The position numbers were made by a program. A stretch of DNA of 32,319 nucleotides from a virus. Position 1 is the first letter of the stretch; every line of letters starts with the position of its first letter. Shown in pieces: positions 1 through 3,000 of this stretch. Location: UHGV virus genome UHGV-0201657; one strand, written 5' to 3'.

Positions 1-3000
1 GTGTTGATAACCTACAGAGGAAAACTACCGGGAATAATTACTGGTTCTCTGAAGACTCCACCGCTGGCCTGAAGACTTAGCATATCCAGGGATTTGAAAT
101 CGATAAACCCTGATAAATATCCATGAACACCAAAATCAAATACGGCCTGTCGGCTGCCGTTCTGGCGCTGATTGCCGCAGGTGCGCCTGCGCCTGAAATC
201 CTCGACCAGTTTCTGGATGAAAAGGAAGGTAACCACACCACAGCATACCGTGATGGTGCGGGTATCTGGACCATCTGCCGTGGAGCCACCCGGGTGGATG
301 GTAAGCCTGTTATTCCTGGCATGAAGCTGTCGAAGGAAAAATGCGACCGGGTTAACGCCATTGAGCGTGATAAGGCGCTGGCATGGGTGGAGAAAAACAT
401 CAGAGTGCCACTGACCGAACCGCAGAAAGCGGGCATCGCGTCATTCTGCCCGTACAACATCGGGCCTTCGAAATGCTTCACCTCAACGTTTTACCGGAAA
501 CTGAACGCCGGAGACCGGAAAGGTGCATGTGCTGAAATCCGCCGATGGATATATGACGGCGGCAGGGACTGTCGGAACCGCTCAAATAACTGTTACGGGC
601 AGGTATCGCGGCGTGACCAGGAGAGCGCGCTGGCGTGCTGGAGTATCGACAGATAAGCAGAATGTTCTGCTGAAAAATGCCGTTGACCAACGCGGACGGA
701 TAACACGAAATCCTGCGAACTGGCAAAACCTAAGTGAATAAAAGTAAAAACCCCGTTTGTTGGCAGCAAGCGGGGTTTTGTGTTTCTGACCTTGAATAAG
801 GCAAGGGAGAAATTATGGGTAGGGAGGTTCTTTCCCTGTGAGGAAGTATAAAAGATTCTTTCTGAGGTTGTCCATTATGAAAGGCATTGAGGTGGAGACG
901 CCAGCAAGTCTGGATTTAACAAGAGCGGCAGCTTTTGCCATTCGTATTGTGGCAATTGCTGTTCTGGTCTGGGCAATCCGTTGGTGGTGATATGAATCGT
1001 GTGCTGTATGGCGTGCTTATTGTCCTGCTGCTTGGTTGTGGATCGCTGTGGCTGGCAACAGACCATTACCGTGATAACGCCATCACCTACAAAGAGCAGC
1101 GAGATGATGCGAAGACAAAACTCAGCCAGGCGAACGCCACCATTGCTGACATACAGCAGCGCCAGCGTGATGTTGCTGCACTCGATGCCAGATACACCAG
1201 GGAGCTTGCTGATGCTAACGCGACTATTGAAAGTCTCCGTGCTGATGTTTCTGCTGGGCGTAAGCGCCTGCAAGTCGCCGCCACCTGTGCAAAGTCAACG
1301 ACCGGAGCCAGCGGCATGGGCGATGGAGAAAGCTCAGGACTTACAGCAGATGCTGAACTCAATTATTACCGTCTCCGAAGTGGAATCGACAAGATAACCG
1401 CGCAGGTTAACTACCTGCAGGAGTACATCAGGATGCAATGCCTCGATTAACAGAGCCAGCTCAATCGCTGGCCTTTTTTATGAGGAGAGATATAACCTGA
1501 ATCAATGCCAGTGCATTATCAACAAATGGATCACTGGGTAAGCTCGTTTGGTTTTAAATGTCCGTCGAGAATCAGATTGTGATTTTCCCGATGCAGAACC
1601 AGTGTGCCCATATAATCAGGTTTAAATCTCCATCCATTCATTTTTTTTGCAATTCTGGACAGACAGTGATTATGTGTGAAAATCACAGTAACATGATCTG
1701 ATTTTGATATTTTAAGGATATTATTTACTGCGTTATCATCACATGTCGATATGTCCGGAATAGTTGCTGTCTTACCTCCCGAAAAAAAAGTGGCTGTCTG
1801 CATTGTTCGGAGTGTGTCTGTAGAATAGAGACTGTAGTATGGAAACATTCTTCTGAATTTATCTCCATATTGTTGAGCTTTGTTAGCTCCGTTTACTGTG
1901 ATTCCCTCATGTGCTGAAAGACATATTCTTTGGGAGCGATCGCATCTTTCCCCATGCCGGATGAGAAAAATAATGGGATGTTTCTGGTTAATCTCAGTGA
2001 CATCGTTCACATCAAGTCTGACTGGAGTTCTTACAATGTATATGATGGATACAGAAACGATTATGACAAGTAAAAATATAAGAAGAGATTTTGTTAGCGT
2101 TTGATTTAACATATAAATTCCCTTGTCTGTGTTGAAAATGGGCATTATTATGCGTAAATCTTATGTAATCCTTAAGGATTGTCTGACGTGGTGATATGAC
2201 GCGAAATACAGTGGGTACACAGAATGCTGTGAACAACGACGAAATGGGCATTGGTAGCGGTACTGGTGCTTTTTTTATTGGTTGGTTGCTCAAGTCTTGA
2301 TAAAGCGCGTTAGCTTTTTGGTATTGCCTCTTAGGTCTGTAAAATTGCCGACGGTGTCCGGCAGTGCATGCAGGGCTGATCGTCTATGAGAACAGAATAT
2401 ATTGCTAAAAATGAAGTGTGCGTCAATGCTTATAAAGCATGCAATTCTGTATTTCTAACTATTCAATAAAATAAATTCTTTCTGTCGCAGTGAATATACA
2501 AATGTTGATCAGCGCTCGATGTGGCGACGGGTTTCTATATCAGGAGACTTTGGCATTTATCCGCGAGGCAGCCTATCTGGTGCTGTAGTGGAATGAAGCG
2601 GATATAACCTAAATAAGGTTAAACATTAATCAGACATGGCTCTGCTGTGTGAAATCTGAAAATTTACAGCAGTCATTGTGCATCAGTTTTTAACAGAGAA
2701 CGTCAGAAGGTGACATGGCAAAGCTGGACTGGAAAAAGCTGGAGCAGGCATTTCGACGCGAACATGTCAAAACCGGCATAAAGCTTCAGGACTGGTGCCG
2801 TCAGAACAATATCAGTTATGACACGGCTCGGCGGTACATTAAACTGCGCAAACACTCCCCCAGAAATACAGAGAAAAGTGCGCAGAAAAATGCGCAAATT
2901 GATGATCAAAAAAGTGCGCAGAAATCTGACGGCAACTCCAGTCATGACGAGCCTTCAGGCGATGATGGTTGTGATGAAAAATGCGCAAATTTGGCAGAAA

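Follow-up and report, generated by a model that had tools for sequence, protein, structure and literature searches.

A prophage-borne gene for an Ais/PmrG-family histidine phosphatase with a predicted PmrA-type promoter in virus genome UHGV-0201657

We identified an Ais/PmrG-family phosphatase gene (1531..2112, minus strand) in the virus genome UHGV-0201657, all 32,319 nucleotides of which are referred to here as the window. By its sequence, the gene encodes a histidine phosphatase of the Ais/PmrG subfamily and not a SixA-like signalling phosphatase. The explanation that we favor, with some confidence, is that it forms a lysogenic-conversion (moron) cassette where the lysis genes adjoin the terminase in a 933W-like prophage that lacks stx, and that its product is a membrane-anchored, periplasm-facing Ais/PmrG paralogue, most likely PmrG-like and probably PmrA-regulated. 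The prophage gene seems to have a predicted PmrA-type promoter of its own.

The 193-residue protein matches the NCBIfam model PRK15416, which covers Ais and PmrG, the phosphatases of heptose(II) phosphate in the lipopolysaccharide (LPS) core, with 201.9 bits (cutoff, 142), where genuine Ais and PmrG reach 392 and 366 bits. BLASTP aligned it with Ais of Escherichia coli K-12 (b2252) at 43% identity over residues 32-186 (E = 7e-44). The Pfam family PF00300 (His_Phos_1, branch 1 of the histidine phosphatase superfamily) is matched by the N-terminal half only, with 28.7 bits against a gathering score of 21.7. RefSeq already names the protein as an Ais/PmrG-type LPS phosphatase in about 43 E. coli genomes, including those of the O104:H4 outbreak. 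A second NCBIfam model, the "PmrG equivalog" NF052369, was dropped as a discriminator because the genuine enzymes fail it as well: the window protein, at 113 bits, falls short of the cutoff of 170, and so do K-12 Ais and Salmonella PmrG at 146 bits.

The catalytic residues characteristic of the PF00300 branch are all present, namely an RHG motif with the nucleophilic histidine, the downstream R102, and the second histidine, H147. The RHG motif (R52-H53-G54 in the 193-residue numbering; 1951..1959, minus strand) lies within the family-invariant sequence RH(G/A)ERCDRS. The second catalytic histidine region, THNH (T146-H149; 1666..1677, minus strand), has H147 directly after a beta strand, which spans E141-146 in the AlphaFold2 model. 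In an alignment of 33 family members, among them chromosomal Ais and PmrG, the residues R52, H53, E55, R56, C57, D58, R59, S60, C64, R102, Q105, H147, H149, and C150 are invariant. Three of the family's four cysteines are thus completely conserved, and the fourth, C124, occurs in most members. The AlphaFold2 model (predicted local distance difference test score, 89.9) has the alpha/beta, phosphoglycerate mutase-like fold of the histidine phosphatase superfamily in general. Much of what a first-pass annotation of this DNA had proposed holds: both motifs are intact, the RHG histidine is retained in all 33 family members, and profile and predicted fold agree on the superfamily. A search of solved structures with the single sequence returned nothing, and a profile search gave only weak matches (fructose-2,6-bisphosphatase, Sts, and cofactor-dependent phosphoglycerate mutase), so that no close relative with a structure was found. 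There was likewise no close viral structure in BFVD, and neither PHROGs nor PADLOC had a phage-family or defense-system model that matched the phosphatase.

Where the first-pass annotation went further, calling the protein SixA-like and proposing action on histidine phosphorelay or phosphotransferase system (PTS) proteins of the host, we found no support. A SixA-like phosphohistidine phosphatase would dephosphorylate host histidine-containing phosphotransfer (HPt) domains or the nitrogen PTS (PTS-Ntr) protein NPr during lysogeny. This we consider extremely improbable. SixA shares the superfamily fold with the window protein, but it is no closer than many other members and is not the nearest structural neighbor. 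Identity to SixA (PDB 1ujc) is 13%, which several other enzymes equal or better, and a search of NCBIfam up to an E value of 10 returned no SixA model, as against the 202 bits for Ais/PmrG. E. coli SixA is, moreover, a soluble cytoplasmic protein with the ArcB HPt domain and NPr as its substrates, whereas the N-terminal export or anchor segment of the window protein and its conserved cysteines point to the periplasm. If its catalytic domain does lie there, the cytoplasmic HPt and PTS proteins cannot be its substrates.

The N-terminal membrane segment on which this argument turns had been correctly recognized in the first-pass annotation. Residues 9-27 (2032..2088, minus strand) form the sole hydrophobic segment of the protein, with a mean Kyte-Doolittle hydropathy of 3.06 and no AXA-type site after it, and they fall within a helix (residues 2-28) in the AlphaFold2 model. 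The segment aligns over the classical cleavable signal peptide of K-12 Ais, and is itself probably an uncleaved signal anchor. From this match to the Ais signal peptide, and from the conservation of four cysteines, we infer a membrane-anchored enzyme with its catalytic domain facing the periplasm.

An open reading frame (ORF) scan of the window gave a frame of 204 codons at 1531..2145 on the minus strand, as the first-pass annotation had it, but translation probably begins at the second ATG, at 2112, which gives 193 residues. We favor this start because it is the one called by RefSeq (WP_000934362.1, with the same ends), because a Shine-Dalgarno-like AAGGGA (2120..2125, minus strand) stands 7 nucleotides before it, because diverged homologues start at the equivalent position, and because a predicted -10 hexamer (2144-2149) overlaps the upstream ATG (2143-2145). 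A transcript from that promoter would therefore encode the 193-residue form only. The GGA core of the Shine-Dalgarno sequence is kept in the upstream alignment. The 11-codon extension (2113..2145, minus strand) is probably not translated; it has no Shine-Dalgarno sequence upstream, and its ATG is missing in four lineages (P0006, P0020, L042, and L045).

Upstream of the gene, 64 nucleotides from the ATG at 2112, is a PmrA/BasR-box-like direct repeat, CTTAAG-gatta-CATAAG (2160..2176, minus strand), with one mismatch to YTTAAK-N5-YTTAAK. The predicted -10 hexamer, AATAAT (2144..2149, minus strand), follows exactly 10 nucleotides after it. Published PmrA boxes consist of half-sites CTTAAG/XTTAAT (CCTAAG in Klebsiella) that lie 5 bp apart and take the place of the -35 element (PMC3973317; PMC10570014). 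The K-12 arnB promoter, an authentic PmrA/BasR-dependent one, has the identical geometry, with CTTAAG-gttaa-GTTAAT, 10 nucleotides, and TAAAAT; the arnB site also serves as a QseB-binding probe (PMC10729948). The significance of the box was assessed with dinucleotide shuffles, 2000 per lineage, matched at the same position. Only 1 of the 2000 shuffles reached the observed match in the window. A box with no more than one mismatch occurs at -64 to -70 in five lineages, which are the window's own and those with 76%, 68%, 64%, and 61% protein identity to it; the match was reached by 0 to 1 of 2000 shuffles in four of these and by 13 in the fifth. The lineage at 72% identity has a box with two mismatches (76 of 2000 shuffles). 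In all six of these box-keeping lineages, exactly 10 nucleotides separate the box from a -10-like hexamer (AATAAT, TATAAT, or TATATT). No box was found at that position in the fimbria-linked, IncI-borne, or chromosomal paralogues. These features are good in silico evidence, though not proof, and suggest that the cassette is wired into the PmrAB regulon of the host.

In Salmonella, PmrG is activated by PmrA and removes the phosphate that WaaY/RfaY places on heptose II of the LPS core (PMC8129183; PMC4312571; PMC5082901). By analogy, the window enzyme would use His53 of the RHG motif as nucleophile, aided by R52, R102, and H147, and would strip the LPS inner core of a phosphate; for the reference enzyme, this is the heptose(II) phosphate added by WaaY. 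Loss of the phosphate would make the cell surface less negatively charged. The PmrA/BasR-type box would serve in place of the -35 element of the phosphatase promoter. Because it has that place, the prophage copy is probably switched on by host PmrAB (BasSR), which senses Fe3+, Al3+, and mild acid, and expression would then accompany that of the host's own LPS-remodelling genes.

Several observations weigh against this explanation. The PRK15416 score of the window protein (202 bits) is about half that of genuine Ais (392 bits), and therefore the substrate specificity may have shifted. The protein has an anchor with no cleavage site where Ais has a cleavable signal, and the argument from disulfides to the periplasm has conservation alone as its basis. 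The second half-site of the window's box, CATAAG, is imperfect, and in P0003, which at 83% identity is the closest of the diverged lineages, the box is degraded, 156 of 2000 shuffles being as good. Finally, the added value of a second ais-type copy is unexplained, and our literature searches found no study of a phage-borne Ais/PmrG copy; those on AfrS and on the localization of PmrG gave nothing usable. The P0003 lineage (L021, around 3930-3946) is a natural variant in which the first half-site reads CAAAAA rather than CTTAAG and the remaining promoter is kept.

Paralogues of the gene occur in two other settings. At seven loci (L009-L012 and L023-L025; gene at 4001-4585), paralogues 43-49% identical to the window protein are found just downstream of a gene for an EAL-domain protein. 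This gene follows a chaperone-usher fimbrial operon in L023-L025, and precedes genes for a hydrolase and a serine protease autotransporter of the Enterobacteriaceae (SPATE) in L009-L012. One family cluster, P0066, has the source label "transcriptional activator AfrS", a database label whose basis could not be checked. On the IncI plasmid pHU590 (L026, 4878-5462), the gene called "traG", beside the shufflon recombinase gene rci and traF, encodes an Ais/PmrG-family protein with 294 bits to PRK15416. A relative is present on more than 1,400 plasmids. On the pESBL plasmid of O104:H4, "traG" was not required for conjugation (PMC4288162).

With paralogues by fimbrial operons and on IncI plasmids, the family has evidently been recruited to several contexts. 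The main rival to our explanation builds on this: the window gene could encode a periplasmic Ais-family phosphatase with another substrate, some other phosphorylated envelope molecule, or one with a mainly regulatory effect, altering envelope signalling and through it other genes such as those for fimbriae, as the "AfrS" label of one relative suggests. The halved PRK15416 score, the position of the paralogues after fimbrial operons and beside an EAL-domain gene, and the presence beside the shufflon of a "TraG" that is dispensable for conjugation all speak for it. On the other side, every catalytic and cysteine invariant of Ais/PmrG is kept in the window protein, and the AfrS name is no more than a database label. 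The PmrA-box-like promoter, present in the prophage clade and not in the fimbrial or IncI paralogues, ties that clade to the LPS-remodelling regulon. We regard this rival, with its change of substrate or regulatory role, as unlikely, but as deserving more weight than any other competitor to a PmrG-like, PmrA-regulated enzyme.

The setting of the gene is that of a moron, as had been proposed from its layout: a gene of low G+C content between conserved phage genes, present or absent among related phages. Its G+C content is 37.5% (39% for the region 1451-2714), as against 51.5% for the whole window. The cassette is bordered on one side by an Rz-like lysis (spanin) gene (992..1450, plus strand; "lysis protein" in RefSeq, with homology to 933W Rz) and on the other by the small terminase gene (2715..3530, plus strand; "terminase" in RefSeq). 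The late genes of the prophage are 933W-like (Sepvirinae type), and there is no stx. Phage 933W shares the flanks of the cassette (window 262-1287, and from 2561 onwards, where it is 87% identical) and differs over 1288-2560. The first-pass remark that the gene takes the position of bor, downstream of Rz on the opposite strand, is correct, because 933W, with these shared flanks, has bor exactly there and in the same orientation.

A database search returned about 70 clusters of relatives, mostly of about 193 residues, from E. coli and Salmonella. Relatives with 60-85% identity to the window protein are likewise encoded between lysis genes and terminase on the opposite strand, and they occur on IMG/VR viral contigs as well. 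The prophages that bear the cassette have packaging modules of at least four types (Terminase_2/6N, lambda-type Nu1/GpA, Terminase_4/TerL-HNH, and the 933W type) and differ in their endolysins, and DNA similarity between the loci is limited to the phosphatase gene and the block upstream of it. More tentatively than for the window gene itself, and with confidence that falls short of it, we propose that prophage cassettes have captured an Ais/PmrG enzyme together with a PmrA/BasR-dependent promoter, that they would provide extra LPS-core remodelling under PmrAB (possibly QseBC) signalling, and that, in the bor slot, they move among lambdoid phages that are not related to one another.

The ratio of nonsynonymous to synonymous substitution (dN/dS) between the window gene and its prophage homologues is 0.18-0.24, which indicates purifying selection. 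Window 1400-2750 matches, at 100% identity, a prophage of E. coli O104:H4 outbreak strains and others; this whole stretch occurs in 43 of the 5,426 complete E. coli genomes and, among deposited phages, in the single record GER2. The family is rare: a copy of the phosphatase gene detectable at the DNA level is present in 83 of these genomes, and in 1 of 50,697 records of phages. In GER2 (L002, 4132-4713; MG710528.1), GenBank has a 273-nucleotide coding sequence and an overlapping "hypothetical protein" on the opposite strand. We rejected a truncated gene there; the DNA encodes the full-length 193 residues with a single change, V27A, and the short form is an annotation artefact.

A further alternative is that the gene now has no function in this prophage and is carried as inert or decaying cargo. 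The host already has its own ais (chromosomal ais is found in 5413 of the 5426 E. coli genomes), the lipoprotein gene adjacent to the phosphatase in the cassette is a pseudogene in the window, and on one otherwise identical IMG/VR viral contig (L043, 4001-4578) the phosphatase gene is frameshifted and loses its frame after residue ~110. Against these stand the intact ORF of the window, which shows 100% identity in all the listed complete genomes (O104:H4, ML35, and O10:H32 strains among them), the dN/dS of about 0.2 against all diverged lineages, and the retention of all catalytic residues. We judge inert cargo to be very unlikely, and return to a functional, PmrG-like phosphatase as the better explanation.

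The decayed companion gene (2196..2390, plus strand; phrog_7528, of unknown function) would have encoded a lipoprotein of about 60 residues with the lipobox LLVGC. In the window it has a 1-nucleotide insertion and a TAG at 2311-2313 where others have CAG. In other phages it accompanies the phosphatase cassette, being intact at L006, L042, and L039 and in two copies at L013 (2644-2826 and around 3552-3808). The conserved block at 2193-2449, which in other phages encodes the 60-residue lipoprotein on the late-gene strand, was considered as a regulatory RNA or DNA element for the phosphatase gene and ruled out as such, since it is the decayed lipoprotein gene. The first-pass annotation had described a 570-bp AT-rich divergent region upstream of the phosphatase; the low G+C content stands, but not all of the region is regulatory, 2196-2390 being the lipoprotein remnant. 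An Rfam scan of 1400-2800 found no known RNA family. A terminator-like hairpin with a T-run on the plus strand at 2246-2271 falls within the part of the decayed lipoprotein gene that encodes the signal peptide, and it is conserved along with that gene. It may have arisen by chance from the coding sequence, or it may halt transcripts that run antisense to the phosphatase gene.

Between the convergent Rz-like and phosphatase genes, a terminator scan found a stem-loop (1455-1472) followed by a T-run (1455..1480, plus strand). The stem-loop had been noted before as a terminator bracketing the phosphatase gene. It exists, but its T-run is on the plus strand only; it is a plus-strand terminator after the Rz-like gene and not a canonical one for the minus-strand phosphatase. 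At window 877-990 (plus strand), between the lysozyme gene and the Rz-like gene, RefSeq has a 37-residue hypothetical protein, with a hydrophobic stretch at the end of the ORF.

If our explanation is true, a phage has brought a second LPS-core phosphatase to the O104:H4 outbreak lineage and to other strains, where the regulator of the polymyxin and metal responses controls it, and O104:H4 has a third copy on its IncI plasmid. With one family member on the chromosome, one on the prophage, and one on the IncI plasmid, the O104:H4 outbreak strains probably have three in all. Prophage cargo pre-wired in this way into a two-component regulon of the host would be unusual; metal or acid cues would turn on a phage gene that changes the surface charge of the lysogen. 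Tolerance of Fe3+, Al3+, and cationic peptides, phage receptor properties, and the adsorption of competing phages could all be affected. The consequence for annotation is small; the value lies in the correction of the SixA/phosphorelay idea and in a testable promoter prediction. Since RefSeq already holds the family name, the novelty is confined to the behavior of the cassette and its predicted regulatory wiring. New here are the probable start at 2112, the recurrence of the slot in prophages with four or more terminase types, together with purifying selection on the gene, and the conserved arrangement of box, 10 nucleotides, and -10 hexamer in most lineages.

Among known systems, E. coli Ais (b2252) and Salmonella PmrG are the closest to the window protein. 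They have in common with it the subfamily, 43% identity over the catalytic domain, the four cysteines, the motifs RH(G/A)ERCDRS, RT.Q.A, and THNHCL, a length of ~190-200 residues, an N-terminal hydrophobic export segment, and a PmrA-box-type element upstream. They differ in that ais adjoins arnB, whereas the window gene is on a prophage cassette, and in that the sole box upstream of K-12 ais is 209 nucleotides away and oriented for arnB, whereas that of the window gene is in the -35 position, 64 nucleotides from the start. Ais has a cleavable signal peptide; the window protein has what looks like an uncleaved anchor, about half the score of Ais to the family model, and an activity that is predicted. 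The IncI "TraG" and the fimbria-linked "AfrS"-type paralogues belong to the same PRK15416 subfamily (294 and 233 bits, compared with 202 for the window protein) and are likewise on mobile elements or genomic islands. Their identity to the window protein is 43-49%, they have other neighborhoods, and there is no PmrA-box-like element at -60 to -75 from their starts.

The bor gene of lambda and 933W occupies the same slot and orientation as the phosphatase gene, after Rz, on the opposite strand, and before the terminase gene, and like it is an envelope-directed moron that could be expressed in the lysogen. The Bor protein, known for lysogenic conversion to serum resistance, is however a small outer-membrane lipoprotein and not an enzyme, and has no kinship in sequence or fold with the phosphatase. 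Phage conversion genes that modify LPS, such as gtrABC for O-antigen glucosylation and the O-acetylase genes, are prophage cargo that alters the LPS of the lysogen. These add groups to the O-antigen, whereas the window enzyme would take a phosphate off the inner core, apparently under two-component control by the host.

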